Sequence record: MT446415.1
Direction: 5' to 3' (one strand)
Source of the DNA: Escherichia virus TH44
Length of the DNA stretch: 64,000 nt
The notes beneath the pieces were generated by a model. The model did not search any database, was not told where the DNA came from, and saw nothing but the letters and a program-made list of their open reading frames with translations. The position numbers and the translations under genes are program-made. Below, piece by piece: positions 7,912-53,176 of this stretch. Position 1 is the first letter of the stretch. Every line of letters begins with the position of its first letter.

Positions 7912-7987
7912 AAAAAGTAGTGTACATCAGTATGGAGTCTATGTATAATGATTCCATACTGAGTTACCAAACAGACTGGAGAATAAA
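7912..7987 (+). promoter_or_regulatory. early promoter cassette (PeSL-like), type A
   Basis: aaaagtagTGTACA (-35) 17 nt TATAAT 7944-7949, then gattccatactgagttac...ctggagaataaaATG; inverted repeat agtatgga/tccatact flanks -10. Confidence 0.6.
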
Positions 7988-8143
7988 ATGAAACCTGCTC
8001 AATATGCAATGACTTTATACCTTGAAGTTAATGGCGATATTACTGAATTTTTTAAATTAATGCAACAGCGCGGAAAAAGTTTTGCAGTTACTGAGCGTCA
8101 ATTTTACGCTTGCCGTAAAAATACATACAATCGTTATGCGTGA
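7988..8143 (+). CDS. small hypothetical protein (51 aa)
   Basis: ATG at end of cassette, stop 8141-8143. Confidence 0.35.
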   Translation: MKPAQYAMTLYLEVNGDITEFFKLMQQRGKSFAVTERQFYACRKNTYNRYA

Positions 8144-8153
8144 GGAAAACAAA

Positions 8154-8414
8154 ATGGATATCAAATTATATTACGCCAAGCACAAAGTTACAGGTAAAGT
8201 TGTTGCTGCCATGTATGATGCATCGGGTGAAGATGTTATTACGGAATTATCCCTTTCTAATTGTAGATTTCTTCGTCCTTTGATAGCGTCAAAAAAAGAT
8301 TTACAAAAACTTATCGACGGTAAATTAGATAATGTCGATGGTATAGATATCCATTATGAACTCCGCCATGCACTGAATGATGGGTTTATGGAAATAAAAG
8401 AGATAGTATTATGA
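8154..8414 (+). CDS. hypothetical protein (86 aa)
   Basis: ATG 8154 after gaggaaaacaaa SD. Confidence 0.5.
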   Translation: MDIKLYYAKHKVTGKVVAAMYDASGEDVITELSLSNCRFLRPLIASKKDLQKLIDGKLDNVDGIDIHYELRHALNDGFMEIKEIVL

Positions 8415-8501
8415 GCAGCAAAACCTGGTGTCTTATCTGGATATTGTGTATCCCAGTAATTTGCGTTTGTTTTAGTTTATTATTAATGAAACTTGCATAA
8501 A

Positions 8502-8559
8502 AAAGTGTACATCTCCAGTGGTTGTAGTATAATGAACCTATCAACTACTGGAGATGATT
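8502..8559 (+). promoter_or_regulatory. early promoter cassette (PeSL-like), type B
   Basis: aaaagTGTACa, TATAAT 8528-8533, then gaacctatcaactactggag motif. Confidence 0.55.
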
Positions 8560-8676
8560 ATGAAAAAGTTACTTAAAGCTATTTGGAACATGTTTGTGCT
8601 GTTTGTTGTCCTGAGCATTTTCCCAATTGTTTTTATGATTGACCATGTGCGTGTTTACTTTAACTATTTCTTTTGA
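8560..8676 (+). CDS. small hydrophobic membrane peptide (38 aa)
   Basis: ATG 8560 7 nt after ggag; one predicted TM segment. Confidence 0.3.
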   Translation: MKKLLKAIWNMFVLFVVLSIFPIVFMIDHVRVYFNYFF

Positions 8677-8686
8677 GGATAATATT

Positions 8687-8893
8687 ATGAATTACAATTC
8701 ACACTTTCAGAAATCCAATCGTCGCTTTGACTTTATGTTCAAGTTTATTGTAGCAATGATTATCCTGATTTTCATTGGTGCCATTGCAATGATTGGTTTC
8801 CAGGTCTGGATTGCTGCTGAAGTATTCACCCAAATCCAGGATAATGGTTTGAAGTCTGTTGTTGATGTAATTTGGAATGGAGCTAAGCAATGA
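8687..8893 (+). CDS. small membrane protein (68 aa)
   Basis: ATG 8687 after gaggataatatt; central hydrophobic helix. Confidence 0.45.
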   Translation: MNYNSHFQKSNRRFDFMFKFIVAMIILIFIGAIAMIGFQVWIAAEVFTQIQDNGLKSVVDVIWNGAKQ

Positions 8894-9135
8894 AACTTTT
8901 TAAAGACATTGCAGTTGGTGAAAAATTTGTCCTGGGTAATGGTCAACAACTGATTCGCATTTCGCCTTTAATGGATAACAGTGAACGCCCTGTGCGCACT
9001 GAAAACTGTTTGGATTATCCTTTTTATCAGAAGCGTTTTGCAATTGAAAATAATACTGAGTGTTTCACAGTTGATGAACTGATGGAATCATCAGAAGAAG
9101 TTGACTTGTGGGATGGCGCAGTTGATGTAGAATAG
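8890..9135 (+). CDS. hypothetical protein (81 aa)
   Basis: ORF with ATGA start-stop overlap to the previous gene. Confidence 0.5.
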   Translation: MKLFKDIAVGEKFVLGNGQQLIRISPLMDNSERPVRTENCLDYPFYQKRFAIENNTECFTVDELMESSEEVDLWDGAVDVE

Positions 9136-9203
9136 TGTACAAACTCTTGGGAGCAGAGTATAATGCTCCCAGTGGATAATAAAATTTAACTGAGGAAATC
9201 ATT
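9133..9203 (+). promoter_or_regulatory. early promoter cassette (PeSL-like), type C
   Basis: agTGTACAaactcttGGGAGCAgagTATAATgcTCCCagtgg; -10 sits in loop of gggagca/tgctccc inverted repeat. Confidence 0.6.
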
Positions 9204-9548
9204 ATGTCTAAAGTATTTTTTGGTAATCGCAACATTATGTTCTTTAAACAGATTAGCGTATCAGAAGCATTTGATTTAAGTTATTCGGGCGGCACAAAAG
9301 CTGTTAACCTTAAAAATTTGATGTCTGCAGAATTTGCATTCTATCAGGACCCTGAAACTGGTTTCTACAAATTTATTAAGTTCCGCATGACTATGGACCG
9401 CGATTATCGTGATGTTTATTATACAAGTTATGAAAGTGTTGTGAATGCAATTCGTGAAGCTTATGGATTGGATTCGTTATCTCTTGACCGCCTGTATAAT
9501 GCAAGCCTTTACACCAGCGGATTTATTTTAGAACAGCTTCAAAAATAG
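9204..9548 (+). CDS. hypothetical protein (114 aa)
   Basis: ORF after cassette and gaggaaatcatt SD. Confidence 0.5.
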   Translation: MSKVFFGNRNIMFFKQISVSEAFDLSYSGGTKAVNLKNLMSAEFAFYQDPETGFYKFIKFRMTMDRDYRDVYYTSYESVVNAIREAYGLDSLSLDRLYNASLYTSGFILEQLQK

Positions 9549-9621
9549 TGTACAAACTCTTGGGGTCAGAGTATAATGACCCCACTGGAGCACAAAACTT
9601 TAACTTACTGAGGAAATTAAT
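9546..9621 (+). promoter_or_regulatory. early promoter cassette (PeSL-like), type C
   Basis: near-identical to 9133 cassette: agtgtacaaactcttggggtcagagTATAATgacccc. Confidence 0.6.
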
Positions 9622-10071
9622 ATGAATACTTACATGACCCGTCGTGACGTACTGAATGCTGGCGCTACCACTGTTGCTTACATCCATAATGGTAATTATG
9701 TCGCCGGTCGCCCAACTAAAGAAGCTATCACCCAACCGGGTTTTTATTTTGTAGTTAAGGGTGAAGGTGAATCGCGTATTGTTGCGGCACGTTTTTACGT
9801 TGGTAACCAACGTTCACAACAAGGGTTTGACACTGTATTAAGTCACATCCGCAAACAGCGTTCACAACTGTCGCGCACAATGGCGAACAATGGTGTTATC
9901 TATGAAGTTCTGTTTGTTCCGGTTTCTAAAATGAAGCCTCTGACAACTGGTTATGGTAAAGGTCAAATTGCAATGGCGTTCACTCGCTCACATAGTTCTG
10001 ATTGCCAGACCCTTTCAGAAATGAATCGCATGCTTGCTGATAACTTTAAATTCATTCTGCAGAGCTATTAA
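9622..10071 (+). CDS. ndd: nucleoid disruption protein Ndd
   Basis: 149 aa; similarity to T4 Ndd incl. [23 protein letters not shown] and C-terminal [12 protein letters not shown]. Confidence 0.8.
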
Positions 10072-10072
10072 T

Positions 10073-10246
10073 ATGAGACATTTCTTTACAATGGGTTACT
10101 TATTTGTTTTAGCACTATTTGTTATTACAGGAGCCTTTATAGCCTTTGGCGCTCCATTTAATGATAAAGTTGCTGTTACTATGTGCTTTAGTGGCGGATT
10201 TATCTGTTTTGAACGTTTATGTAAAATGTGTGGTATATATGAGTAA
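10073..10246 (+). CDS. small membrane protein (57 aa)
   Basis: ATG 10073 overlapping ndd stop; hydrophobic. Confidence 0.4.
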
Positions 10247-10319
10247 TTTCCATAATGAACATGTGATGCAATGGCATCGCCATAATCTGAAATTAACTGG
10301 CGTCTTTGGACGCCCTTGA
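10239..10319 (+). CDS. stp: Stp peptide (26 aa; anti-restriction peptide that triggers PrrC anticodon nuclease)
   Basis: [26 protein letters not shown] is near-identical to T4 Stp; not in ORF track (<60 aa). Confidence 0.8.
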
Positions 10320-10326
10320 GGAAAAT

Positions 10327-10485
10327 ATGATTATTCTGGCTTTTATCGAACTTATTATTGCCGTGGTTTGTTCAGTCTGCTTCTTTTTAGGAGTCTGGAC
10401 TCCAAGCACATTTTTCATGGGCGCGATGTTTATTGCATGGGTTATTTCTGGAATTGTAAGTCTGGCGCGGTATGCGAAAAAATGA
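10327..10485 (+). CDS. small membrane protein (52 aa), candidate for T4 ac-like gene
   Basis: ATG 10327 after gaggaaaat; two hydrophobic segments. Confidence 0.35.
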   Translation: MIILAFIELIIAVVCSVCFFLGVWTPSTFFMGAMFIAWVISGIVSLARYAKK

Positions 10486-10622
10486 TTAAGAAAATCTTGG
10501 GCTACTCGTTAGCCCTTGCTGCCTTATTGGTAGCGCTGTATTATGGAGTTGTATTTGCATTAGTGCAGGTTGTGCTTTTTATTTCTGATGCTATAATGGC
10601 AGTACATTCGTTAATCTGGTAA
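10482..10622 (+). CDS. small membrane protein (46 aa)
   Basis: ATGA overlap with previous ORF; hydrophobic. Confidence 0.35.
   Translation: MIKKILGYSLALAALLVALYYGVVFALVQVVLFISDAIMAVHSLIW
10572..10598 (+). promoter_or_regulatory. candidate middle promoter for gene 52
   Basis: TGCTTTT 10573-10579, 13-nt spacer, TATAAT 10593-10598. Confidence 0.3.
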
Positions 10623-10630
10623 GGTGATAT

Positions 10631-12010
10631 ATGTCTGACGTTTTAAGTATGATGTCCAAACAGTTCAGTGATTCCATGGGGACCCTTAACCCACGCAGTC
10701 TAAAAGACATTATTGATGTGGAAGCATTATCATATGCTATCTACACTGTGGAAGGTCGCGCAATCCCAAACATGATTGATGGTTTTAAACCAGTTCACAG
10801 ATTTGTTATGGCGAGAGCATTAGACCTGGCACGTGGTGATAAGAATAAATTCCATAAGGTTGCATCCATCGCAGGTGGCGTAGCTGATTATGGTTATCAC
10901 CATGGCGAAGCATCAGCGGAAGAAGCAACTTCTGGTCTGGTCGCAACATATAAAAATGAATACCCCATGTTTGATGGACAAGGCAACTTTGGTTCCAGAA
11001 TGGTGCCAGAAGCATCATCAGCTCGTTATGTATTCGCACGGGTTTCAAAGAACTTTTATAACTTGTTTAAGGATACAGAATATGCTCCGGTCCATCCTGA
11101 TGAAGAACATAAGCCTCCTGCTTTTTATCTTCCTGTTATTCCTACTGTATTACTTAACGCCACTTCTGGGATTGCTGTTGGCTTCGCTACTGATATTCTG
11201 CCTCATTCGTTCCAGGACGTCAAGGAAGCTGTTAAAGCTATCGTGGAAGGTCGGGAGCCGGTTGCTCCGAAAGTAAAATATCCAGAATTCCGCGGTAAAG
11301 TTGTTGAGCTGGAAGAGCCTGGTAAGTATGAGCTTCATGGCACGTACAAAATGACTTCCAGGACCCAAATGGAAATTACTGAAATCCCGGTCCAATGGAA
11401 CCTGGAAAAGTATACAAGTAAAATCCTGGACCCGCTGGAAGAGAAAGGTTTTATCACCTGGAAAGATAACTGCGGCGAGCATGGTTTTGGGTTTAAGATT
11501 AAATTCCGCAAAGAATACAAGCTGGATGGCACCGAAGAAGAAAATCATGAGAAAATCATGAAAGACTTTGGTCTGATTGAGAAGCTCTCCCAGAACTTAA
11601 CAGTGCTTAATCACAAAGGCAAGCTGGCTGAATACACCAACACGCTTGACCTGATTCGTGATTTCGTTGATGTCCGTAAGACTTATGTTCAAGTGCGAAT
11701 TGACAGTAAGATTAAAGAAACTGAAGCGGCATTTAAACTGGCCCGGGCAAAAGTCTTCTTTATTAAAGAAGTGATTGATGGTAAAGTTGTTATCCAGGGG
11801 AAACCTCGTAAGAAGTTGATTGAGGAACTCCAGGCGAGTGAAATATATGGCGATTATGCAGAGAAGTTAGTGGCGATGAACATCTACCATATGACCTCTG
11901 ATGAAGCTAAGAAGCTTGCGGATGAAGCTAAGGCTAAGAAAGCTGAGCATGAGTACTGGAAGACAACTGACGTTAAAACTGAATATCTTAATGATTTGGA
12001 GGCTCTATGA
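10631..12010 (+). CDS. 52: DNA topoisomerase II medium subunit (GyrA-like)
   Basis: 459 aa; N-terminus matches T4 gp52 pattern. Confidence 0.9.
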   Translation: MSDVLSMMSKQFSDSMGTLNPRSLKDIIDVEALSYAIYTVEGRAIPNMIDGFKPVHRFVMARALDLARGDKNKFHKVASIAGGVADYGYHHGEASAEEATSGLVATYKNEYPMFDGQGNFGSRMVPEASSARYVFARVSKNFYNLFKDTEYAPVHPDEEHKPPAFYLPVIPTVLLNATSGIAVGFATDILPHSFQDVKEAVKAIVEGREPVAPKVKYPEFRGKVVELEEPGKYELHGTYKMTSRTQMEITEIPVQWNLEKYTSKILDPLEEKGFITWKDNCGEHGFGFKIKFRKEYKLDGTEEENHEKIMKDFGLIEKLSQNLTVLNHKGKLAEYTNTLDLIRDFVDVRKTYVQVRIDSKIKETEAAFKLARAKVFFIKEVIDGKVVIQGKPRKKLIEELQASEIYGDYAEKLVAMNIYHMTSDEAKKLADEAKAKKAEHEYWKTTDVKTEYLNDLEAL

Positions 12011-12096
12011 GCATAGAAAATGAATACGCAGTGATTTGTGCTGCTGTAGCTGGCCTGTTGATTGCCTGGGTTATTGGCAAAGTGATTGATTCTTAA
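12007..12096 (+). CDS. small hydrophobic peptide (29 aa)
   Basis: ATG overlaps gp52 stop; single TM-like segment; followed by terminator. Confidence 0.3.
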   Translation: MSIENEYAVICAAVAGLLIAWVIGKVIDS

Positions 12097-12101
12097 AAAC
12101 T

Positions 12102-12130
12102 AGGACCCTTCAGGGTCCTTTTTTATTTTA
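12102..12130 (+). terminator. intrinsic terminator aggacccttcagggtcct + T-run
   Basis: GC hairpin followed by ttttttatttt. Confidence 0.6.
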
Positions 12131-12217
12131 AAAAAGTAGTGTACAATCCCCTTGTCTTAGGACATAATGATTCCATACTGAGTTACACAATGAATCACAA
12201 AAACTTTGGAGAATAAA
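12131..12217 (+). promoter_or_regulatory. early promoter cassette (PeSL-like), type A
   Basis: aaaaagtagTGTACAa ... CATAAT 12163-12168, gattccatactgagttacac...ggagaataaaATG. Confidence 0.55.
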
Positions 12218-12433
12218 ATGTTTACTGCACAACAGAATGAAGGTCAAGAATACATCAACGCTAAATTCAAATCTAACAAAGAAGCTTGCTATTACTACTT
12301 TGATATGTTCAAACTGGCGAATTCTAAAGAAGAACGTAAACAAGCGATTGATGTGATTGTTTCTACTTCCCATATGAAACGTACTGTAGTACAATCATAT
12401 GCATCAAATTACATGAAATCTATTAAGGGATAA
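12218..12433 (+). CDS. hypothetical protein (71 aa)
   Basis: ATG 12218 at end of cassette. Confidence 0.5.
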   Translation: MFTAQQNEGQEYINAKFKSNKEACYYYFDMFKLANSKEERKQAIDVIVSTSHMKRTVVQSYASNYMKSIKG

Positions 12434-12435
12434 TT

Positions 12436-13044
12436 GTGAACAAGTTAAATTATATCGTTAAATGCTCCCAGAACGCGCTGCATGAGACTGATGTTAATGC
12501 TCTGGTGTTTGTATACAAAAACAACTTCGTGAGTCCAGAGGTTGTTTTAGACCAGCAGAATACATCAATTGATAGTGTGCAGACATTGTTGAATAACAAC
12601 TATGTTGAAGCTTCTGGTGATGGTTTGATGGTTACAGAAAAGGGTGTTGACCTTATTCTGGATGCAGCTGAACTTTGGGCGAATGAAAATAATCCTGACC
12701 TTCTGGAAGTGAAGAAGACAAGAACAAAACGCGGTGTGACTGATGAAATGGAAGCGACTGCAGAATATATCAAAGAGCAATTGTTGTCTATTGGTATTGA
12801 CTTTAAGAGCATTTCAGAAGACCGCAGCAATCTGATTGTGAAGTTCAAGCGTGTCAAGACATTAAAACAGATTGATGTTCGTCGTGATGGTCAGATTCGC
12901 GTACATGCGTATAATACTGAACAAAAGATAGTAAAACAGTTTACAGACGTGGGATTTAGCGTTAAAGTAGGTGGATTGAATACCTACATTGACAACGTTA
13001 TGTCAACTGAAAACATTCAACATGTTATTAACATCTTAAAGTGA
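12436..13044 (+). CDS. motA: middle transcription activator MotA
   Basis: 202 aa, GTG start; similarity to T4 MotA incl. SGDGL motif; position between 52 and asiA. Confidence 0.8.
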   Translation: MNKLNYIVKCSQNALHETDVNALVFVYKNNFVSPEVVLDQQNTSIDSVQTLLNNNYVEASGDGLMVTEKGVDLILDAAELWANENNPDLLEVKKTRTKRGVTDEMEATAEYIKEQLLSIGIDFKSISEDRSNLIVKFKRVKTLKQIDVRRDGQIRVHAYNTEQKIVKQFTDVGFSVKVGGLNTYIDNVMSTENIQHVINILK

Positions 13045-13051
13045 GGAAATT

Positions 13052-13384
13052 ATGAATAAGCTGAATATTGTTAATGAATTGCGTGCTTGTGTAGAACCTA
13101 CTCAAGAGGGTTGGGATGTTTGGTATCATGGCGCTTACCTTGGAACTATTGTCAAGGTCAAAGCTGGTCAGTATCTTATCCATCGTCAGGATGATGCAGT
13201 AGCTCCGTTTGGTGCACGCAAGAACTTCATGGCAGCGATTGGTGCCTTTGTTCCAGCAGCATATGAAGTATATAAAGCTGACTACAAAGAATATCAGGAA
13301 TCACAACCAGTTATTCGCTCAATTGGTGTTAATAAAGCTCAACAGAAAAGTCTGTGGCAACGTGTTAAAGGTTGGTTCAAATGA
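13052..13384 (+). CDS. hypothetical protein (110 aa)
   Basis: ORF after gaggaaatt SD. Confidence 0.5.
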
Positions 13385-14247: not shown

Positions 14248-14401
14248 CTTAGAGAACACCATCACTGGTCAGCGTACACGCGAGCAGGCTTGCTTTGAGG
14301 AATTCCTTGGAGCTGATTTTAAGTTCCAGGAACCAGTTGAACAGATGTATCAGGAATATGTTGTACAGATGGAAAATCATGTGTACAACCCAGAGGAATA
14401 A
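14237..14401 (+). CDS. small acidic protein (54 aa)
   Basis: ATG 14237; below ORF-track cutoff. Confidence 0.3.
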   Translation: MSHNLENTITGQRTREQACFEEFLGADFKFQEPVEQMYQEYVVQMENHVYNPEE

Positions 14402-14459
14402 TAGTACAATATCCTTACTGAATAATTGAATGTCTTATTGAATACTTGAGTAAATTAAA

Positions 14460-15385: not shown

Positions 15386-15403
15386 ACTTTTCTCCTTTAA
15401 AGA

Positions 15404-15411: not shown

Positions 15412-15422
15412 GCGCTTATGTA

Positions 15423-26950: not shown

Positions 26951-27615
26951 TTACGATTCGCATGCCTCCAAATAACAACCGATATATAAATGGTAAATCA
27001 GTATATCAACTGTACTTATCCATCAAACAGCATTTTTCGGGTCGTTATGATATTATCAAATATAACTGGACCATGCGAATCTCCGATAGTGCTTATCAAA
27101 AACGTCGCGATAAGTATTTTTTCGAAAAGCTTAGCGATAAGTACACTCTTAAAGAATTAACGTTAATATTCATGTCAAACCTGGTCGCGAACCAGGATGC
27201 ATGGATAGGCGATATAAGTGATGCCGATGCTCTGATATTTTATAGAGAATACATTGGCAGACTTAAAAGAATTAGACAAGTATACGAAGATGATATAAAG
27301 AACATCTATTACTTCAGTAAGAAAGTCGAAGTCAAATCGCTCCAAGAGATTTTCGAGTATAATACTAAAGTGAATACAAGTTATATTTTCAAACTTCTCC
27401 AATCGAATGTTATCTCATTTGAAACGTTTTGTTTGCTTGATTCATTTTTAGGTATTATAAATAAACATGATGAACAGACTAACGACTTGGTTTGGGAAAA
27501 GTATTCAACCAAACTAAATGCCTATAAGAAAATCTTAAATATAGATTCTCTTGAAGCTCGTAAATTGTTCATCGAGACCGTTAAAAACTGTCAAATAACG
27601 CTTCAATCACTTTGA
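26947..27615 (+). CDS. 59: helicase loader gp59
   Basis: 222 aa; very high similarity to T4 gp59 throughout. Confidence 0.95.
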   Translation: MITIRMPPNNNRYINGKSVYQLYLSIKQHFSGRYDIIKYNWTMRISDSAYQKRRDKYFFEKLSDKYTLKELTLIFMSNLVANQDAWIGDISDADALIFYREYIGRLKRIRQVYEDDIKNIYYFSKKVEVKSLQEIFEYNTKVNTSYIFKLLQSNVISFETFCLLDSFLGIINKHDEQTNDLVWEKYSTKLNAYKKILNIDSLEARKLFIETVKNCQITLQSL

Positions 27616-27675
27616 AGTATAATTAATACGTAATCAAAACAACTGCTAAAAATCAAATAATCTAAGGAAAATCAT

Positions 27676-28587: not shown

Positions 28588-28592
28588 TATAA

Positions 28593-28620
28593 GGGGACCT
28601 TCGGGTCCCTTTTTTATTTT
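28593..28620 (+). terminator. intrinsic terminator ggggaccttcgggtccc + T-run
   Basis: GC hairpin followed by tttttatttt. Confidence 0.6.
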
Positions 28621-28697
28621 CAAAAAGTAGTGTACAAGCCCCTTGAGCTAAGGCATAATGATTCCATCAACTACTGATAACAACTGAGGAAATAAAA
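28621..28697 (+). promoter_or_regulatory. early promoter cassette (PeSL-like), type B
   Basis: caaaaagtagTGTACAagcccctt ... CATAAT 28654-28659, gattccatcaactactga. Confidence 0.55.
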
Positions 28698-29061: not shown

Positions 29062-29122
29062 AGTTTACAATGGGTCTATGGTTGAGATACTATAGACCTA
29101 TCAACTACATGAGGAAAATAAA
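29062..29122 (+). promoter_or_regulatory. early promoter cassette (PeSL-like), type B variant
   Basis: GTTTAC 29063-29068; inverted repeat ggtctat/atagacc around -10; gacctatcaactacatgagg. Confidence 0.5.
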
Positions 29123-29350
29123 ATGGCTAAGGTTAATATTGATATCGTTGATTTTGAATACACTTACGAAGTTATTCGTAATCGGTATCCTTCTTTGTGT
29201 ATGACTTACATTAAAGATACCCAATTCTTTAGTATTCAAATTGAAGTTCAAGGTCCTCTTGAAGACCTTACCCGCTTTATGCAAAATGAATATTGCGAAG
29301 GGATGCACCCGGAAGACGCTAAATTTTATATGAATTTGATTGAAGCTTAA
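29123..29350 (+). CDS. hypothetical protein (75 aa)
   Basis: ORF after cassette. Confidence 0.5.
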
Positions 29351-29409
29351 TATACAAACCAACGGGAACATGATAATATGTTCCCTCAATTGAATATGAG
29401 GAAATTAAA
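29351..29409 (+). promoter_or_regulatory. early promoter with hairpin-embedded -10
   Basis: gggaacat-GATAAT-atgttccc inverted repeat. Confidence 0.45.
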
Positions 29410-30040: not shown

Positions 30041-30117
30041 AAAGTAGTGTACAACCAAATGGGGCTATGACATAATGGTCCCATACTGAGTTAACAACTA
30101 AAACACTGGAGAATAAA
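30041..30117 (+). promoter_or_regulatory. early promoter cassette (PeSL-like), type A
   Basis: aaaagtagTGTACAa ... CATAAT 30071-30076, ggtcccatactgagttaac...ctggagaataaaATG. Confidence 0.55.
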
Positions 30118-35523: not shown

Positions 35524-35561
35524 TATAATTATGCTCATGGATGAGCTATTGAGGAAATAAA

Positions 35562-38315: not shown

Positions 38316-38381
38316 AAGGGGTGTACAAGCCCCTTCTTTCTATACATAATGGTTCCATCAACTACTGATGAGGACCAAAAC
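38316..38381 (+). promoter_or_regulatory. terminator-promoter composite (PeSL-like, type B)
   Basis: hairpin aagggg-tgtacaag-cccctt holds the -35 in its loop; CATAAT 38345-38350; ggttccatcaactactgatgagg. Confidence 0.5.
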
Positions 38382-39860: not shown

Positions 39861-39929
39861 AAAGTAGTGTACAAACTTATGGGAGCAGAGTATAATGCTC
39901 CACGGATTATAAAATTTGAGGAATTGAAT
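39861..39929 (+). promoter_or_regulatory. early promoter cassette (PeSL-like), type C
   Basis: agtagTGTACAaacttatGGGAGCAgagTATAATgCTCCacgg. Confidence 0.55.
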
Positions 39930-40387
39930 ATGAAAATATTATGGTATGTTGAGAACGCTAATAATATCATGAAGTGTAAAGACGAATTCTTCCAAAAGCT
40001 GGCCCGAATTGGCTCTTGCCGCAAAACACCTTTGGAAGGTAAAGCTCGATTCTTTATTAAAGAATGTAAAGGTGGAGCTATTACAGAAGTCGAATATTAT
40101 GCTCCATGGAATGATTTCCCAAGCCGAGTGTTAGAATTATCCGAGCCTATTCCTTCTGATGTATGGAATTCAATCTTAGATGTTACGGCGTGCTATGAAG
40201 AAAACCAATCACTTCATGAAGAAAAAGAACGTATTCGTGAGCTAGTAAAAAGTTTTGAATACGCGGCTAAACGCCATGGTCAAATGCAATCTGCCGCTGC
40301 ACTTGGTGATGTTTCTGAAAGTGCAGCTTATGAAACTGGTAAAATCCTTAAAACCTGTCGCGAAGAACTTTATAAGGAGCTTGGTGT

Positions 40388-40391
<4 letters not shown>
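39930..40391 (+). CDS. hypothetical protein (153 aa)
   Basis: ATG 39930 after gaggaattgaat SD; track ORF 39816 includes the promoter. Confidence 0.5.
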
Positions 40392-41609: not shown

Positions 41610-41610
<1 letters not shown>

Positions 41611-41807
41611 TGAATAATATCGAAAAGATTTTTCGTACAATCGAAGAAATTGAAAAACGTTACGAATACTTTTTCAGCGTATGGCCTTTAACCGATGGAC
41701 GTATTGGCCTGGATGTGATGGACTATAAAGATGAAGACAAGGTCGATGGTGGTATTTTTAAATCCGCTCCTGAACTCCTTGCCTTCTTGGAAGAACATTA
41801 TGTATAA
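41610..41807 (+). CDS. hypothetical protein (65 aa)
   Basis: TAATG overlap with pseT. Confidence 0.45.
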
Positions 41808-42015
41808 CAAACACCATGAAGTTGAAGAAGAAGCTTATAAAGAGCTTCAGAAACTGGTAGGGCAGAATATGTCTCCTGCTCTTATCAACAGCCTGGCTGC
41901 ACTGCGCAATGATATCAACGAACGATACAAGGGCGAATATTATGTTGAATTCGTTCCGCTGACTGAAGTCATTGACCGATTTATCGTTAATGTCAAGGTA
42001 CATACCGTCCATTAA
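41800..42015 (+). CDS. hypothetical protein (71 aa)
   Basis: ATG 41800 overlapping previous stop. Confidence 0.45.
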   Translation: MYNKHHEVEEEAYKELQKLVGQNMSPALINSLAALRNDINERYKGEYYVEFVPLTEVIDRFIVNVKVHTVH

Positions 42016-42029
42016 CGCTTTAAAAATTT

Positions 42030-42088
42030 TATGTTATAATGGGGTCTAGGTCCTTTGGATAACTCCAATAACTAAGCGAGAAAAGAAA
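42030..42088 (+). promoter_or_regulatory. early promoter (TATAAT 42035-42040)
   Basis: atgtTATAATggggtctaggtcc; inverted repeat flanking. Confidence 0.4.
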
Positions 42089-42367: not shown

Positions 42368-42427
42368 GTGTTTACTTTCACCACGGATGGTGTATAATGA
42401 ATTTCATCAACACATGAGGAAAACAAA
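42368..42427 (+). promoter_or_regulatory. early promoter (GTTTAC -35, TATAAT -10)
   Basis: gtttac 42370-42375, tataat 42393-42398. Confidence 0.5.
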
Positions 42428-45043: not shown

Positions 45044-45052
45044 AATTAGCGT

Positions 45053-46028: not shown

Positions 46029-46032
46029 GTTC

Positions 46033-46060
46033 AGGGACTCTTCGGAGTCCCTTTTTATTT
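46033..46060 (+). terminator. intrinsic terminator gggactcttcggagtccc + T-run
   Basis: GC hairpin followed by tttttatttt. Confidence 0.6.
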
Positions 46061-46142
46061 TCCATAAAGGGGTTTACAACAGGGTTGGTCCAGTGCATAA
46101 TGATTCCATACTGAGTTACACAATAAAACACTGGAGAATAAA
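46061..46142 (+). promoter_or_regulatory. early promoter cassette (PeSL-like), type A
   Basis: ggGTTTACaac ... CATAAT 46096-46101, gattccatactgagttacac...ctggagaataaaATG. Confidence 0.55.
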
Positions 46143-46511
46143 ATGAAAATCAATCTTAACTCATACATCAAAGGTAAAGACCACGACGGCTACAAAGCAA
46201 TCGAAACTAAAGAGATGCAATGGCACTTGTATAAAGAACAATTTGAATTCGTTTCTTGCATGACTCCAGAAGGTCCTTCTGATGACTTCTCCTGGAAAAT
46301 TATGGTAACAAACTTTTTTACTGGCGACACATATGAATTGAAAACTTTGATTCTTGGTAAGATTCGTTGTAAGACCTATGAAGATGAAGAAACTGGTTAT
46401 TCTGAAGATGTTACATGGTATCAAAATGGTCGCACTACTGCTGATGATTTGATTGAAAAAATGAAAGCTAAGGGTGAATTAAATTTAGATAATTGGATTA
46501 AAGTCGCATAA
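46143..46511 (+). CDS. hypothetical protein (122 aa)
   Basis: ORF at end of cassette. Confidence 0.5.
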   Translation: MKINLNSYIKGKDHDGYKAIETKEMQWHLYKEQFEFVSCMTPEGPSDDFSWKIMVTNFFTGDTYELKTLILGKIRCKTYEDEETGYSEDVTWYQNGRTTADDLIEKMKAKGELNLDNWIKVA

Positions 46512-46582
46512 AACAGTTTACTTTGGTACAGGTTATGATATTATAAACCTGTACCAACAAATGAAAACAACTGGAGAATAAA
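46511..46582 (+). promoter_or_regulatory. early promoter with hairpin-embedded -10
   Basis: GTTTAC 46516-46521; 8-bp inverted repeat ggtacagg/cctgtacc around ttatgatattataaa; ctggagaataaaATG. Confidence 0.5.
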
Positions 46583-46948: not shown

Positions 46949-46984
46949 TCTTAAATGGGGCGAAAGCCCCTTGAGGAAAATACT

Positions 46985-47466: not shown

Positions 47467-47467
47467 T

Positions 47468-47680
47468 ATGTTTAAGAAACTGATTCAGAAAATTTTGGGA
47501 ACAGAAATGGTTGAAGTTACTTATCGTGTAACAGACGTGAGCCCATGGGCCCGAAATATTGAACCATATACTAAAACAATTAAAATGCTGAAATCTGACG
47601 GTGGATTGTCTATTAAAGACCGTCTACCTGGTTATGGTCATTGGGCTGATGTAGAGATTATCAGCGTCAAAGATATTTAA
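47468..47680 (+). CDS. hypothetical protein, tandem paralog 1 (70 aa)
   Basis: about 45-50 percent identical to next ORF (EMVEVTYRV, SIK.RLP, IISVKD). Confidence 0.55.
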   Translation: MFKKLIQKILGTEMVEVTYRVTDVSPWARNIEPYTKTIKMLKSDGGLSIKDRLPGYGHWADVEIISVKDI

Positions 47681-47689
47681 GGAATCTTC

Positions 47690-47902
47690 ATGATTAAGAA
47701 ATTATTTAAAAAGCTGTTTGGCTTGGAAATGGTTGAAGTGACTTATCGTGTTATTGATTTATCACCGCCATATGCTTGCGATGAAGATGCTATTAAAACT
47801 GTTGTTATGCGAAAAACATATCGCGGGCGGTCAATTAAAGAAAGATTGCCAGACCATGGCATGTGGTATGCAACCAAGATTATCAGTGTCAAAGATGTCT
47901 GA
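47690..47902 (+). CDS. hypothetical protein, tandem paralog 2 (70 aa)
   Basis: see paralog 1. Confidence 0.55.
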   Translation: MIKKLFKKLFGLEMVEVTYRVIDLSPPYACDEDAIKTVVMRKTYRGRSIKERLPDHGMWYATKIISVKDV

Positions 47903-48353: not shown

Positions 48354-49174
48354 AACCCGTTATTTTAACAGATATTGATGGCGTATGTTTGTCATGGCAG
48401 TCTGGCTTGCCTTATTTCGCCCAAAAATATAATTTACCCCTGGAACATATCCTTAAGATGATTCAGGATGAAAAATTTGTGACCCCTGGTAAACTGTTCA
48501 ATTGTGATGAAGAGTTGGGAGCACAGTTGATTGAGAAATATAACTGTTCAGATTTTATTCGCTATTTGTCTCCTTACGCGGATGCGTTAAGGGTTATTAA
48601 TAACCTCAAAGAGCAATATGATTTTGTGGCTGTTACGGCTCTGGGTGATTCCATTGATGCCCGTCTGAATCGTCAATTCAACCTGAATGCTTTGTTCCCT
48701 GGTGCATTTAAAGAAGTGATGATGTGTGGTCATACAGCCTCTAAAGAAGAGTTATTTCAGAAAGCGAAGACCAAATATAATGTCGTTTGTTATATTGATG
48801 ACCTTGCACACCATTGCGACCATGCGAGTGAAATCCTTGAAGTCCCGGTTTATTGGATGGCCCGTGGTGAACGTGATGCTATTCCTAAAACAGCTTCCAA
48901 AGTTTTTAATTGGGACGATGTAGCCGGACAGCTTAAACTGAAACACAAAGATGAACCAGTCAAACCAGAATTCACCCCTGATGAACTCCGTAAACTGGAA
49001 GAGCTGTTTCGTGAAACTCGCCGTCTTCAACAACAAATGCAGCAAGGCTGGCAGCCAGGTCAACCATGGACCCCTGGATATAATCCAGCATATCCATATC
49101 AATATGGCCCACGCGTAGGTACCGGCATTGAATATTGGTACAATCAACCGACCGGTGGCCAAGGGGGTAATTGA
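48350..49174 (+). CDS. HAD-superfamily hydrolase, likely 5'(3')-deoxyribonucleotidase-like, with Q/P/Y/G-rich C-terminal tail
   Basis: N-terminal ILTDIDGV (DxDGV HAD motif I); C-terminal 60 aa low complexity. Confidence 0.5.
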   Translation: MKPVILTDIDGVCLSWQSGLPYFAQKYNLPLEHILKMIQDEKFVTPGKLFNCDEELGAQLIEKYNCSDFIRYLSPYADALRVINNLKEQYDFVAVTALGDSIDARLNRQFNLNALFPGAFKEVMMCGHTASKEELFQKAKTKYNVVCYIDDLAHHCDHASEILEVPVYWMARGERDAIPKTASKVFNWDDVAGQLKLKHKDEPVKPEFTPDELRKLEELFRETRRLQQQMQQGWQPGQPWTPGYNPAYPYQYGPRVGTGIEYWYNQPTGGQGGN

Positions 49175-49452
49175 TGTTTGTCGTTCATACTATTTCAGAC
49201 CGTGGTCCAGTTACCACGATGGATTACGGTCATGTTAACCAGTTTATTCGTCATGTGAATCATAATTACTCGTTTGATATTAATCCGGCTAAAGATAATC
49301 CTGTTTGGCGTGAATGTGTTGAGCAAGGATTTATCTATGTTCACTTCATGACTAAAATGAAACCGGATGGGGCGACTAAATTTGTGTTCACTTATCACAA
49401 ACGCCTGGATTTGCTTTTGGAAGATGTGGCATATAATAGAGCCAACGACTAA
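49171..49452 (+). CDS. hypothetical protein (93 aa)
   Basis: ORF. Confidence 0.5.
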   Translation: MMFVVHTISDRGPVTTMDYGHVNQFIRHVNHNYSFDINPAKDNPVWRECVEQGFIYVHFMTKMKPDGATKFVFTYHKRLDLLLEDVAYNRAND

Positions 49453-49455
49453 GAG

Positions 49456-50994
49456 GTGATTATGATTTTAGATATTTTAAATGAAATTGCTGCAACCGAT
49501 TCCACTAAAGAGAAACAAGCTATTCTGGAATCGTATTCTGACAATGAAACCCTCAAACGTGTGTATCGTTTGACATATTCCAAAGGCATCCAGTTCTATA
49601 TTAAGAAATGGCCTAAACCTGGTACAACGTCTCAAAGCTTTGGCATGTTGAATATCGATGATATGCTTGACTTTATCGAATTTACATTAGCCTCTCGTAA
49701 ATTAACAGGTAATGCTGCAATCGAGGAATTATCTGGCTATATTGCTGATGGTAAAAAAGCAGATGTTGAAGTCCTGCGGCGTGTTATGATGCGTGACCTG
49801 GAATGCGGGGCATCCGTATCCATTGCAAATAAGGTTTGGAAAGGTTTAATTCCTGAACAACCGCAGATGCTCGCTTCTTCCTATGATGAAGCCGGTATTG
49901 CCAAGAACATTAAGTTCCCGGCCTTTGCACAATTGAAAGCCGACGGCGCTCGGTGTTTTGCTGAAGTTCGTGGCGATGAGTTAGATGATGTTCGATTGTT
50001 ATCCCGAGCTGGCAACGAATACCTCAAGCTTGACCTCCTTAAAAAGGAATTGATTGAAGCTACCCGTGAAGCGCGTGAGAGACATCCTGAGGGCGTTTTG
50101 ATTGACGGCGAGTTAGTATATCATGAACAGAAAGTAGCTCCCCAGAATGACGGTTTGGGCTTCCTTTTTGACGATTCAGATGAGATTGCCCCTGCACAAG
50201 AAACTGCGGAATCAAGAACCTTTTCAAATGGTCTGGCCAACAAATCATTGAAAGGAACTATTTCTGCAACAGAAGCTGCTTGTATGAAATTCCAGGTTTG
50301 GGATTATGTTCCACTAATTGAAGTCTATTCTGATGTTAAGATTCTCAATCCATTGAAATACGATGTGCGTTTTGCTGTTCTGGAAAAGATGATTGCAGAT
50401 AACGTGGTGCTGCATGGTTTCGACCGCATGATTCTGATTGAAAACCATGTTGTTAACAATCTTGATGAAGCGAAAGTTATCTATAAGAAATATGTTGATG
50501 AAGGTCTTGAGGGTATTATCCTTAAGAATATGGCATCGATTTGGGAAAACAAGCGCTCAAAGAACTTGTATAAGTTCAAAGAAGTAATTGACATTGCAAT
50601 GGAAATCATTGGATATTACGAGCACGATAAAGACCCGAATAAGATTGGTGGTGTTGTGCTTCGTTCTTCTTGTGGTAAGATTACAAATAACTGTGGTTCT
50701 GGTTTTAAAGACACAACTCAAGTTAAAGATAAGAAAACCAAAAAATGGGTTACTATTCCGATTGAGGAGCGTCATGAAATGGACCGTGAAGCCTTGATGG
50801 TTAAAGCTCGTAAAGGTGAATTGGTTGGAATGATTGCCGACTGTGAATGTAATGGTTGGTTGACTTCCGAGACTCGTAAAGATAATACGGTTGCATTGTT
50901 CCTGCCGATTATCAAAGGGTTCCGTTTCGATAAAGACCATGCAGACACATTCGAAGATGTATTTGGCGACTGGTCAAAGACCGGGTTAAAATAA
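49456..50994 (+). CDS. 30: ATP-dependent DNA ligase
   Basis: 512 aa; high similarity to T4 ligase (LKADGARCFAEVRGDELDDVRLLSRAGNEY, KFQVWDYVPL). Confidence 0.95.
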   Translation: MIMILDILNEIAATDSTKEKQAILESYSDNETLKRVYRLTYSKGIQFYIKKWPKPGTTSQSFGMLNIDDMLDFIEFTLASRKLTGNAAIEELSGYIADGKKADVEVLRRVMMRDLECGASVSIANKVWKGLIPEQPQMLASSYDEAGIAKNIKFPAFAQLKADGARCFAEVRGDELDDVRLLSRAGNEYLKLDLLKKELIEATREARERHPEGVLIDGELVYHEQKVAPQNDGLGFLFDDSDEIAPAQETAESRTFSNGLANKSLKGTISATEAACMKFQVWDYVPLIEVYSDVKILNPLKYDVRFAVLEKMIADNVVLHGFDRMILIENHVVNNLDEAKVIYKKYVDEGLEGIILKNMASIWENKRSKNLYKFKEVIDIAMEIIGYYEHDKDPNKIGGVVLRSSCGKITNNCGSGFKDTTQVKDKKTKKWVTIPIEERHEMDREALMVKARKGELVGMIADCECNGWLTSETRKDNTVALFLPIIKGFRFDKDHADTFEDVFGDWSKTGLK

Positions 50995-50997
50995 CAA

Positions 50998-51018
50998 AAG
51001 GGCTTCGGCCCTTTTTTA
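50998..51018 (+). terminator. intrinsic terminator gggcttcggccc + T6
   Basis: GC hairpin followed by tttttt. Confidence 0.6.
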
Positions 51019-51019
51019 G

Positions 51020-51027
51020 TATAAATA
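51020..51027 (+). promoter_or_regulatory. late promoter TATAAATA for alt
   Basis: exact TATAAATA 25 nt upstream of alt ATG; consistent with Alt as a late, virion-packaged protein. Confidence 0.55.
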
Positions 51028-51052
51028 CATCATATTTTATAAGGAACCTATT

Positions 51053-53113
51053 ATGTCTGAACAATTAAATGAACTCTTTGACAAATATATCGAAGCCTTC
51101 GGTTATCCTGTCATTAATATGAATCCAAAATACAAGGTCCCACAGGTTTGGCAATTCGGTGTTCCTGGGACCAATTCTCTTATGGCCCGTTTGATGCAAT
51201 TCACGGGCAAAGAAACAGTTAAACAATATAAACGTGGTGATGCAATTGCCGAGGTATTCCTGCTCTCCGGGACTTCACATGGCCATGCTGTTCCTCTGAA
51301 GGGTGGTCTAGGTGAAAAACCTCTTGATGCGATTAACCTGATTTTTGTTACAGTCTGGGAAAGCATTAAACTAGGCAAACCTGATGTAGTCTTGTTCCGT
51401 TTCCCATCCAAAAAGATGAAAGGACAAGACCAAGCTGTTATTCGTATTATGAATCGACTGATTCAAATGAAAACTAGCGGACGTTATCATGTTCTTCCGA
51501 ATGCTTCTGGCCTCGGTAAAAAGAACGCTTATGTAATTATGTACAAAAAGGGTGTTGACCTGCTTTCGGTTGATGGTATGCCACCGGTCCCTGAGAAATA
51601 TCAAAAAGTTGAAACTAAAGTTGGCGATGTATTCACCAATAAAGATACAGGTGCACAAGTCTCCAAACAAGAAATCGCAGCCGAAGTTCTGATTGATGCA
51701 GCAAACAAAAAGACCGATGCTGCTGTTGCCCAGAAAACTAAAATCAGTCGCCGAGCTATTGCACAAGCCCAGTATGCTCCAAGTGATTCCGTGCCAGACG
51801 GTTGGGACGAAATTGATGCAGAAGCTGCTAAGTTTAGTCGACCGGCTACGGCAGAACTTATCGATGATTATGAAGAACTGGAAATTTTTGTTCGACCTTC
51901 CGAAACGAATACTATGGCTCGTATGCGCGCAGCAGATGAGGCTATGCGAGCAAATGGTGTTTGGAAAGAAGAAATTCGTGTTGAAGACTCTGACCCAATT
52001 TTTAACCGTATGCATCGTGAACTTAAACGTGCCCCTGTTGGCAGTATGAAGCAGATGCAGATTTTTGCCGAATCATGTGCAGAGATTCTTAACCTTCGCA
52101 AAGCTGCATTTATCGAAAGAAAAATGAATGATGCACCTCCTAACCTGGATGCAGCCACTTATGCAGCCTCGCTCTGGGAAAAAGAATACACAAGCGCCAT
52201 TCGTGTTGCAGTTAAAGACTTTGCCGAAGAAGCATCAGAAAATACTCTTAATTTCACAGCAGGGTATACTGACAACCGTTTCCATTATGGCCAGCGAGAA
52301 GCAATCGCAGATTATTGTGGAGCAAACTATGCCGATATTAATAATTATTTGATGGGCAAATATTATGAAGAAGAAGCTGAATTCCTAAATCTAGACAGAG
52401 TTGTCGAAACAATTAAGGAATTGGATTCGGCCTTTGAAATTGGACATAAGTTGCCGCCGAATACAACTCTTTGGCGTGGTCAATATTTAAACGTTCCTAC
52501 ATTTGATAAAATTAAGAAATCTAAATTATTTTATTTCAGGAACTATGTATCAACGTCGTTTAAACCGATTATCTTTGGTGGCTGGGTGGCGAACGTTGCT
52601 ATGGCTGCAGTTCATCAGGACTATCGTGATGGGACATCTTTCCAGGCTGATGACGAAATTGTTTTACCAGATATGCCGGATGCACGCCGCGACCACGTAA
52701 TGATGCATGTTGGTTGGAAAATTTCCGGGGCGGACTTAATTAACGTAATTGTTCCTGGGGAATTGTCGAGCAACCCGTCCGAGCAGGAAGTTATTCTTCC
52801 TCGTGGGACCGTAGTTAAGATTACCAAAATTACTGATGCTTCGTATCAAGGAAACGCGAACGTCAAAATGCTGGAAGCTGATATCCAGACTACGGACCAA
52901 CTGGATGAAAATGCAGTTATCTATGATGGCGATGTGTTGATGGAAACTGGTGAGCTTGTCGTTTATCAGGGCGAGGAACCAGAAGAGCCAGTAGAATCTG
53001 TTGACTTTGCATCGTTTGCATCCTCTGGGGTAACGAAGAAAGTCAATCAAGGTCTTGGTATTCTTGCTAGTTGTATTAATTTGGAAGCTATTCCTCCTAA
53101 ATTCCTTTCGTAG
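51053..53113 (+). CDS. alt: Alt ADP-ribosyltransferase (packaged; modifies host RNA polymerase)
   Basis: 686 aa; size and position as T4 Alt (682 aa). Confidence 0.85.
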   Translation: MSEQLNELFDKYIEAFGYPVINMNPKYKVPQVWQFGVPGTNSLMARLMQFTGKETVKQYKRGDAIAEVFLLSGTSHGHAVPLKGGLGEKPLDAINLIFVTVWESIKLGKPDVVLFRFPSKKMKGQDQAVIRIMNRLIQMKTSGRYHVLPNASGLGKKNAYVIMYKKGVDLLSVDGMPPVPEKYQKVETKVGDVFTNKDTGAQVSKQEIAAEVLIDAANKKTDAAVAQKTKISRRAIAQAQYAPSDSVPDGWDEIDAEAAKFSRPATAELIDDYEELEIFVRPSETNTMARMRAADEAMRANGVWKEEIRVEDSDPIFNRMHRELKRAPVGSMKQMQIFAESCAEILNLRKAAFIERKMNDAPPNLDAATYAASLWEKEYTSAIRVAVKDFAEEASENTLNFTAGYTDNRFHYGQREAIADYCGANYADINNYLMGKYYEEEAEFLNLDRVVETIKELDSAFEIGHKLPPNTTLWRGQYLNVPTFDKIKKSKLFYFRNYVSTSFKPIIFGGWVANVAMAAVHQDYRDGTSFQADDEIVLPDMPDARRDHVMMHVGWKISGADLINVIVPGELSSNPSEQEVILPRGTVVKITKITDASYQGNANVKMLEADIQTTDQLDENAVIYDGDVLMETGELVVYQGEEPEEPVESVDFASFASSGVTKKVNQGLGILASCINLEAIPPKFLS

Positions 53114-53176
53114 GGGTTTACAAGCACAAGGAAGTGCGATACAATGTTCATATCAATTGCACATGAGGAAAACAAA
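53114..53176 (+). promoter_or_regulatory. early promoter (GTTTAC -35)
   Basis: ggGTTTACaagcacaaggaagtgcGATACAATg then gaggaaaacaaaATG. Confidence 0.45.

Follow-up and report, generated by a model that had tools for sequence, protein, structure and literature searches.

What are the short, similar modules that stand directly in front of many small early genes in Escherichia virus TH44: devices that move these genes about, or the promoters that express them? In an initial annotation of 64,000 nucleotides (nt) of this phage (record MT446415.1; this whole stretch is called the window), about 16 such modules were described as near-identical mobile cassettes, each a likely recombination breakpoint marking the gene behind it as horizontally acquired. 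The repeats are, very probably, sigma-70-dependent early promoters, built as promoter/stem-loop composites of the promoter-early-stem-loop (PeSL) type. Some of the cassettes are demonstrably recombination joints. Taken as a class, they appear at most slightly more recombinogenic than ordinary gene junctions, and would not serve as markers of acquired genes. By its sequence the window belongs to a T4-type coliphage of the VR7/SP18 genus Gaprivervirus (Tevenvirinae): a 3-kb probe matched T4-type coliphages of the group of VR7, SP18, VR20 and CJ20 at up to 96.7% identity, in a search that hit 295 records from several T4-like genera. It was compared with ten relatives over ~50 kb of synteny (89-95% identity to the window, alignments chained). 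Sites are named below by the start coordinates first given for them.

A promoter-like module lies directly 5' of a + strand open reading frame (ORF) at all 16 listed coordinates. The core GTKTACA-N17-YATAAT has nine exact matches, every one on the + strand, where 0.01 are expected by chance, and a looser pattern occurs at 23 sites on the + strand and six on the - strand (4.3 +/- 2.1 expected per strand). At 15 of the 16 sites, a T(G/T)TAC(A/T) or TATACA -35 element is followed, after a spacer of 16-18 nt, by a -10 element matching TATAAT at four to six of its six positions; at these early-type sites the predicted leader is 20-43 nt long and a Shine-Dalgarno sequence (SD), GGAG or GAGG, stands 6-9 nt 5' of the ATG. 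The A-rich UP region reported earlier is borne out, with 52-80% A+T in the 25 nt 5' of the -35 (64-80% in 11 of the 13 listed sites that the scan caught; ~59% in the genome) and a run of five or six A in most of these tracts, as in AAAAAGTAG. From this anatomy we infer promoter activity, the predicted composite unit consisting of an A-rich UP-like tract, a G(T/G)TACA -35, a 16-18 nt spacer, a TATAAT-like -10, a conserved start site and leader, and the SD and ATG. The extended consensus of T4 early promoters, reportedly described by Liebig & Ruger (1989) and Miller et al. (2003), comprises an A-rich upstream region, a GTTTAC -35 and a TAnnAT -10. A generic sigma-70 consensus scanner did not discriminate (33, 64 and 50 sites against 24.6, 54.7 and 47.4 expected), and served only for terminators and as a check that the listed sites rank highest among its + strand hits.

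The copies are near-identical only within subtypes. A repeat search independently recovered families D1, D2, D3 and D7 with 60-86% identity to the reference copies, and mean anchored identity is 0.60-0.73 inside subtypes as against 0.43 over all cassette pairs. The subtype A leader CCATACTGAGTTA has four exact occurrences, in cassettes (0.09 expected), the subtype B leader ATCAACTACTGA two exact copies and one with a single mismatch, and the inverted repeats of subtype C are found at 9133, 9546 and 39861. Cassettes 9133 and 9546 are 84% identical over 57 nt, and the segments at 12107 and 28598 86% over 70 nt. A -10 of TATAAT or CATAAT had been given for every copy; four sites depart from it (TACTAT at 29062, TAATAT at 29351, TATTAT at 46511 and TACAAT at 53114). 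Likewise, the leader end thought to be general, CTGGAGAATAAAATG (TTTGGAGAATAAAATG at 12131), is present in five sites, the remaining ones ending GAGGAAA..AAAATG. The SDs of cassettes 7912, 8502, 12131, 30041, 46061 and 46511 read GGAG and those of the other cassettes GAGG. GGAG is the motif cut by the T4 RegB endoribonuclease in early mRNAs; a regB gene in this phage, if there is one, would be located outside the window.

The early cassettes are listed here; the core used for folding starts where the -35 ends and extends 28 nt beyond the -10, and stability was judged against shuffles (z).

7912-7987, + strand: early cassette with subtype A leader; -35 TGTACA at 7921-7926, -10 TATAAT at 7944-7949; 13-bp hairpin at 7927-7962 over the -10 (z -4.8); SD GGAG, ATG at 7988.
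8502-8559, + strand: early promoter before ndd.4; -35 TGTACA at 8506, 16-nt spacer, -10 TATAAT; 16-bp hairpin at 8512-8554 over the -10, with the SD included in its 3' arm (z -5.2).
9133-9203, + strand: early cassette of subtype C, repeat family D3; -10 inside GGGAGCA/TGCTCCC (z -3.6).
9546-9621, + strand: early promoter of subtype C before ndd; stem GGGGTCA/TGACCCC (z -4.0).
12102-12217, + strand: terminator at 12102-12119 with T run, then an early promoter with subtype A leader (site 12131), before a small ORF 5' of motA.
28591-28697, + strand: gene 32 terminator at 28591-28612, then an early promoter with subtype B leader (site 28621), before frd.2a.
29062-29122, + strand: early promoter before frd.3; GTTTACA, -10 TACTAT; 12-bp hairpin overlapping the -10 (z -4.4).
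29351-29409, + strand: early promoter before frd.2b; TATACA, -10 TAATAT; 9-bp hairpin GGGAACAT/ATGTTCCC around the -10 (z -2.3).
30041-30117, + strand: early promoter before frd.1, with a subtype A-like leader; 10-bp hairpin over the -10 (z -3.1).
38316-38381, + strand: early promoter with subtype B leader before the alc N-terminal ORF; stem AAGGGG/CCCCTT over the -35.
39861-39929, + strand: early promoter of subtype C before ORF 39930-40391; GGAGCA/TGCTCC around the -10 (z -2.8).
42368-42427, + strand: early promoter GTTTACT-N16-TATAAT 3' of cd.3; weak 5-bp spacer stem (z -0.4).
46033-46142, + strand: terminator at 46033-46052, then an early promoter with subtype A leader (site 46061), before 30.8.
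46511-46582, + strand: early promoter GTTTACT-N16-TATTAT before 30.7; 14-bp hairpin over the -10 (z -5.5).
53114-53176, + strand: early promoter GTTTACA-N17-TACAAT before alt.-3, the true start codon being at 53177.

The family of about 16 thus stands for 15 of its members and needs correction at both ends: one listed site, 42030, is a middle promoter, and at least two early-type sites had been missed, of which that at 2671-2746 is probably a further, weaker member of the family.

2671-2746, + strand: terminator hairpin GGACCTTCGGGTCC with T run, then TGTACA-N17-TAAGAT and SD-ATG.
14382-14459, + strand: early-type promoter TGTACA-N17-TACAAT before asiA.
42012-42088, + strand: MotA-box middle promoter before cd.3, AACGCTTTA-N12-TATAAT, outside the early family.

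Site 42030 is without a -35; its Mot box has one mismatch, an SD-like sequence, GAGAAAAG, is present, and a fold of the full region gave no significant structure (z -0.4). Its layout, like that of five other + strand sites, resembles the T4 MotA-dependent middle promoters (Mot box TGCTTtA about 12 nt 5' of the -10), with the difference that CGCTTTA is found at 42014 instead of TGCTTTA, and it is the only one of the 16 listed sites to do so. The MotA-box pattern (A/T)(A/T)nGCTT(T/C)A-N11-13-TAnnnT occurs ten times on the + strand and four times on the - strand (1.1 expected). MotA-box-like sites at 594, 25396, 27597, 42014, 44663 and 60751 (+) lie 5' of gene 39, rnh, 32, cd.3, 31 and the gene at 60806, respectively, and the copies at 42014 and 25396 are nearly identical over 27 nt. 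Both motA and asiA are encoded within the window.

What purpose could the stem-loops serve? Stable hairpins flanking the -10 are found in nine cassettes (7912, 8502, 9133, 9546, 29062, 29351, 30041, 39861 and 46511; z -2.3 to -5.5), so that the embedding of the -10, noted earlier for subtype C, holds there and is not limited to it. The cassette cores fold more stably than 71 plain gene-upstream segments (mean minimum free energy -12.0 versus -7.1, p=0.0014; mean z -2.3 versus -0.4). The cassettes without a core stem (12131, with z +0.3, 28621 and 46061; all z>0) are exactly the three that abut a terminator, at 12102-12119, 28591-28612 and 46033-46052; the initial annotation had spoken of several. 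These three terminators are GC-rich, UUCG-type hairpins with a T run, and they are the scanner's top terminator hits. Beside the nine stems over the -10 and the three upstream terminators, the tally of positions contains one stem over the -35 (38316) and two weak spacer stems (42368, 53114). That hairpin and terminator complement each other suggests that both serve to insulate: they may be two ways of protecting a transcription unit from upstream read-through, whether by termination, attenuation or 3'-end formation. Since the 5' arm lies upstream of the start site, a -10-spanning hairpin would exist only in RNA reading through from upstream. In the record of Morganella phage MP1, the depositors label the homologous element 'rho-independent terminator' and 'putative promoter'. 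No Rfam family was matched at gathering threshold anywhere in the window, and the stems therefore do not belong to a curated RNA family.

The inverted repeats might instead act as DNA, by forming a cruciform, by binding a dimeric regulator, of phage or host, that switches the early promoters off, or as the target of structure-specific recombination. The palindromes are centred on the -10, an ideal place for an operator, and Arbiol et al. speculated that a DNA-binding protein may recognise GGGG...CCCC stems (PMC2839356). However, the arms are wholly different in sequence between copies, only their position and pairing potential being kept, so that there is no common sequence for a protein to recognise; the stems of 9133 and 9546, for example, differ by two fully compensated pairs (GGGAGCA/TGCTCCC versus GGGGTCA/TGACCCC). 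Stem variants in the relatives are wobble-compatible, forming G.U pairs at 46511 and, through an A->G variant, at 8502; such variants are tolerated in RNA but are mismatches in DNA, and thus favour a structure at the RNA level. Moreover, the cassettes with an RNA terminator upstream have no palindrome, which again suggests that the shared role is one of RNA. We consider a DNA-level role very unlikely. The stems being out of register between copies, these comparisons used shuffles, plain-junction controls and ortholog variants rather than one covariation model.

At the RNA level, the hairpins could also be translational gates, allowing translation only of transcripts that start at the embedded promoter. 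At 8502 the probability that the SD is unpaired drops from 0.46 in the promoter's own transcript to 0.00 in read-through RNA, and partial masking effects are seen at 39861, 46061, 29062 and 38316, where a second stem, GGTTCCATCA/TGATGAGGACC, contains the SD. In T4, the alc and alt.-3 early promoters are almost identical over ~55 nt and, as read by eye from the sequence, appear to contain a long imperfect hairpin over the -10 with the SD in its 3' arm; this pair would be a case within T4 of cassette homogenisation combined with possible gating of the ribosome-binding site (RBS). Against such a general gate stand the six hairpins of 7912, 9133, 9546, 29351, 30041 and 46511, whose 3' arms end 15-25 nt 5' of the SD and leave its accessibility unchanged. 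SD masking was therefore rejected as the general role of the hairpins, an unlikely one on this evidence, and translational gating would be a special case: at 8502, and in part at 38316, the predicted hairpin also hides the SD in read-through RNA.

The terminators themselves form a repeated family of the GGGACC-TTCG-GGTCCC type, with a UUCG-like loop and a T run, whose members are at 12102-12119, 28591-28612, 46033-46052, 53469-53490, ~2677-2696 and 50996-51015. The T4 counterpart 5' of 30.8 has swapped arms, GGACTCC-TTCG-GGAGTCC, and SP18 has both versions, flanking gp30.6A. One member has the following place.

53469-53490, + strand: terminator hairpin of the GGGACC-TTCG-GGTCCC family at the close of the early block, ahead of the convergent late genes.

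How old, then, are the promoters? T4 has early-type promoters at the same positions before ndd.4, motA and asiA, after gene 32, and before alc, cd.2, 30.8, 30.7 and alt.-3, which gives nine cassettes with T4 positional counterparts, eight of them listed and the ninth the unlisted asiA promoter. The T4 promoters were placed by pattern matching and visual inspection; in the T4 GenBank record a single misc_feature note concerns a promoter, and it names an early promoter, Pe133295, at the cd.3/cd.2 junction, the position of 42368. The arrangement of a terminator followed by a promoter is common to T4 and the window before motA (after gene 52), after gene 32 and before 30.8, the T4 30.7 promoter has the same -10-spanning hairpin (GGTACAGG...CCTGTACC), and T4 leaders have ATCAACTACTGA in common with subtype B. 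The subfamilies are genome-specific, with scores of 0.68-0.78 inside one genome. Mutual identity is 0.71-0.73 among the motA, 30.8 and frd.1 promoters of the window, 0.72-0.78 among the motA, ndd.6 and post-32 promoters of T4, and 0.78 between T4 alc and alt.-3; positional orthologs of subfamily members with a T4 counterpart are at 0.38-0.50, and the nine orthologous pairs average 0.49. T4 promoters differ in flavour (AAAAAGTAGTGTACA ... CATAATGATTCCAT here versus TTCACAAAACGGTTTACA ... GGTACTATACAACTATC in T4), and subfamily membership is reshuffled between positions. A BLAST search with one 109-nt terminator plus cassette found 9-13 copies per genome, essentially only in Gaprivervirus, which agrees with each T4-like lineage having a promoter flavour of its own.

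Genome-specific subfamilies at conserved positions suggest either concerted evolution of the copies or lineage-specific selection. The promoter positions are, for the most part, ancestral and held in common with T4, their sequences are homogenised within each lineage, possibly by gene conversion, and the copies occasionally recombine. One may, tentatively, speculate further that the positions are fixed and ancient and evolve in concert, that subtypes spread among them by ectopic gene conversion, that promoter-only copies enter new junctions (as at 9133), and that hairpin and terminator are interchangeable insulators. According to this speculation, the early regulon would owe its continual rewiring to cassette conversion and not to point mutation, gene shuffling being a by-product. 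The view that the copies are alike purely through convergence on a functional consensus, neither related by descent nor exchanging sequence, agrees with the low all-pair identity of 0.43 and with conserved columns that are mainly functional motifs. It is nevertheless highly improbable, being already disfavoured by the chimeric cassettes and the promoter-only insertion found among close relatives (see below) and by the non-functional spacer and leader that subfamilies share (84% identity in 9133/9546, 86% in 12107/28598).

Several results weigh against the PeSL-type reading of the repeats as promoter/stem-loop composites that insulate, homogenise and recombine. The -10-spanning stems are not followed by a U tract, and would therefore not count as intrinsic terminators of canonical form; only at 8502/ndd.4 is the SD decisively masked in read-through RNA; and the likeness of copies within a lineage could be due not to gene conversion but to selection favouring the promoter that is optimal in that lineage. 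Concerning recombination, 72 gene junctions were scored, 16 with a listed cassette and 56 plain, against the 43 distinct structural differences of >=30 nt that the ten relatives show in the early regions. A breakpoint is present at 8/16 cassette junctions and at 25/56 plain ones (Fisher odds ratio 1.24, p=0.78), which weakens the 'shuffling driver' component of the PeSL proposal, and the step in identity across the junction, 0.135 at cassettes versus 0.106 at plain junctions, is borderline (one-sided p=0.057).

The same figures bear on the proposal that the cassettes are primarily mobile recombination modules, each a recent horizontal insertion, and the main driver of differences in gene content. 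For it speak the cassette-bounded events described below (frd.3, gp30.6A, the deletions at 28621/29062/29351, the 39861 allele and the 9133 indel), the identity step, and event hits per junction that are about twice as frequent at cassettes (21 at 16 junctions, versus roughly 35 at 56 plain ones by hand count), an excess that is driven by the 32-frd region and favoured by the wider catch zone of the cassettes. The lack of enrichment at junctions counts against it, as do the eight sites at which no breakpoint was found in the ten relatives, namely those before ndd.4, ndd, the pre-motA ORF, the alc N-terminal ORF, cd.3, ORF42428, 30.7 and alt.-3. Whether a cassette is present or not, the joints fall within short microhomologies of 7-17 nt that comprise the SD-ATG and first codons; examples are ATGAGGAAAaTAAAATG, which joins cassette 29062 to 29351, AAAATGATT at the plain junction 30721|30933 and ATATGAG at 10084|10237. 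Several of the large indels are homing-endonuclease genes (segG-like, mobE-like) that are unrelated to cassettes. Finally, eight listed cassettes and the asiA promoter are orthologous in T4, and the genes behind the cassettes are mostly of the T4 family (ndd.4, ndd, the pre-motA ORF, frd.1/.2/.3, the alc N-terminal ORF, 30.7, 30.8 and alt.-3). The ORFs behind the listed sites, of 38-180 amino acids (aa) and mostly annotated as hypothetical, are in the majority conserved across T4-like phages rather than ORFans. We therefore consider it unlikely that the cassettes are primarily mobile modules. The comparison of breakpoints with cassette edges in related phages, proposed with the initial annotation, yielded clear individual cases only; that every cassette is a likely breakpoint is not upheld, nor is the view that it marks an acquired gene.

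The relatives' annotations list no transposase or integrase in this region, although no dedicated search for either was made. Resemblances to miniature inverted-repeat transposable elements, to repetitive extragenic palindromic elements or to integron attC sites were weighed by analogy only and set aside, the strict relationship to strand and gene start fitting promoters.

Where cassettes do take part in recombination, an adjacent gene is relocated, deleted, inserted or swapped, or the promoter alone is copied. The clearest displacement concerns frd.3, which lies between frd.2a and frd.2b in the window and between ORF254c and frd.1 in VR7 and VR25. In these two phages ~330 nt (frd.3) are inserted inside the frd.1 cassette with a crossover at the -35, creating a chimeric cassette in which TAAAAAGTAGTGTACA comes from a frd.1-type cassette and the rest, the 3' two-thirds, from a window-type frd.3 cassette. 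SP18, VR7 and VR25 have deletions or replacements with ends in cassettes 28621, 29062 and 29351; breakpoints at 28621 are found in VR7, VR25 and TH15, other or chimeric cassettes replace 29351 in SP18, VR7 and TH15, and in TH15 the post-32 promoter is joined to a subtype A leader. Near 30.8, gp30.6A of SP18 sits between two copies of the terminator hairpin 5' of the promoter, and a deletion in DK-13 begins inside the leader of cassette 46061. The 51-aa ORF behind cassette 7912 is absent from 8/10 relatives, with the joint at the SD-ATG. At its 3' end (ORF 7988-8143), a weak promoter-like TTTACG-N17-TACAAT with GAGGAAAACAAAATG is found at 8103-8153, and the inserted ORF thus apparently came with, or retained, an RBS region of its own for the gene that follows.

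Cassette 9133 occurs only in the window, SP18 and DK-13, and six relatives join ndd.1 directly to the next RBS; it is thus an indel of the promoter alone, and the copy shares 84% identity with its neighbour 9546. At 39861, breakpoints fall at 39923-39935 in 10/10 relatives, with divergence exactly at the ATG. The segment 39930-40230, which is the 5' 300 nt of the ORF and runs from the start codon to a point within the gene, is otherwise found only in Dhakavirus (JS98, JS10 and others, 93-95%) and in one unclassified record; within the phage collection it is missing from every other Gaprivervirus record. The subtype C cassette also stands at this place in JS98, and 39861 is thus a conserved flank beside an allele exchange between genera. 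Other cassettes are stable: 9546 is conserved in 10/10 relatives, the asiA promoter at 14382 is ~100% conserved, and so are 46511 and 42368, the genes behind which are 76-94% identical in nearly all relatives (83-94% for the gene of 42368). In the nine relatives that keep 30.7, cassette 46511 differs by at most one base; DK-13 is without 30.7. The spacer of 12131 is hypervariable among relatives.

Gene names were transferred from annotated syntenic regions of SP18, CJ20 and VR7, and the window genes come from strand-restricted ORF calls with manual corrections from the relatives' annotation. The + strand carries early and middle genes: first rIIA/rIIB, denB, the ndd cluster, 52, motA and asiA, and further on, in this order, rnh, 59, 32, the frd cluster, td, nrdAB, denA, rnlA, alc, pseT, the cd cluster, gene 31, rIII, the 30.x cluster, gene 30 and alt. 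Late genes for tail fibre and baseplate are on the - strand, at 14.7-25.4 kb and 53.5-59.7 kb. All the listed sites fall in the early clusters denB-ndd, 52-motA, 32-frd, rnlA-pseT, cd and rIII-30. T4-type late promoter motifs, TATAAATA, are present at 50995-51052, after a terminator and 5' of alt, where they would be consistent with late expression of the packaged Alt protein, and at 59686-59738, in the divergent gap before the gene at 59739. Empty sites for homing-endonuclease genes present in relatives, a source of gene-content differences independent of the cassettes, were seen at 27585-27616 (segG-like, 59/32), 35532-35551 (nrdA/nrdB, DK-13) and 41610-41611 (mobE-like, by pseT). A 57-aa ORF at 10073-10246 is absent from 8/10 relatives and lies at a cassette-free junction with the ATATGAG microhomology at its start codon. 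Tandem paralogous 70-aa ORFs resembling 30.4 (47468-47680 and 47690-47902) are 76% identical at their 5' ends; in 8/10 relatives there is one copy only, the overlap at the junction being 18 nt.

Our findings add the VR7/SP18 genus, which is used in phage-therapy collections, to the phages with PeSL and T4 early-promoter architecture, and provide a map of early promoters and terminators that can be used for annotation in this genus. The element type was already known, and this genus is not catalogued in the PeSL papers (PMC2839356, PMC4122927). What deserves attention here is the complementarity between terminator and hairpin, the homogenisation of sequences, lineage by lineage, at positions that are conserved, and the copying of a promoter alone at 9133. 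The PeSL hypothesis is tempered by the control at the level of junctions, by which the cassettes are not clearly more recombinogenic, SD-ATG microhomology doing the same job; many of the cassettes are ancestral, not mobile. The complementary distribution of -10 hairpins and upstream terminators offers a simple, testable idea of what the stem is for.

Among known systems, the T4 genes e, soc, 49 and I-TevI are hairpin-gated, a promoter inside an RBS-masking hairpin freeing translation. The 8502/ndd.4 promoter resembles them in lying within a hairpin that has the SD in its 3' arm, and differs in that the embedded promoter is early rather than late and the arrangement exceptional among the cassettes. 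The likeness to T4 early promoters resides in the orthologous positions, the ATCAACTACTGA leader, the pairing of terminator with promoter and the 30.7 hairpin. The definition of a PeSL joins an A/T-rich tract to sigma-70-like -35 and -10 boxes spaced by 16-18 nt and to an SD and ATG at the 3' end; its stem-loop may lie upstream, on the -35, within the spacer, on the -10 or downstream, the spacer and the -10 being the commonest of these five positions (PMC2839356, PMC4122927). PeSLs occur preferentially in hyperplastic regions, 5' of small ORFs whose function is not known, and have been linked to indels between close relatives (Arbiol et al. 2010, PMC2839356; Comeau et al. 2014, PMC4122927). 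The present genus was not analysed in these papers, where only 'PeSL-like sequences' near g43 of JS98 are mentioned (PMC4122927), and no promoter analysis specific to VR7 or JS98 was found in the literature searched, although VR7 genome papers outside it may already list these promoters. The match to PeSLs proposed at the outset extends to every feature of sequence-level anatomy: the A/T-rich tract, the -35/-10 spacing, the stem positions, the SD and ATG, and the siting between small early genes in plastic regions; some indels and replacements, and one gene displacement, also have their joints inside the elements. The cassettes differ from the published PeSLs in their -35, mostly GTGTACA here versus TTGACA in RB49/phi1 and TTTACW in PST/T4, and in their stems, which are not of the poly-G/poly-C type, and their joints in this genus lie mostly in the SD-ATG or -35 part rather than in the AT-rich tract.

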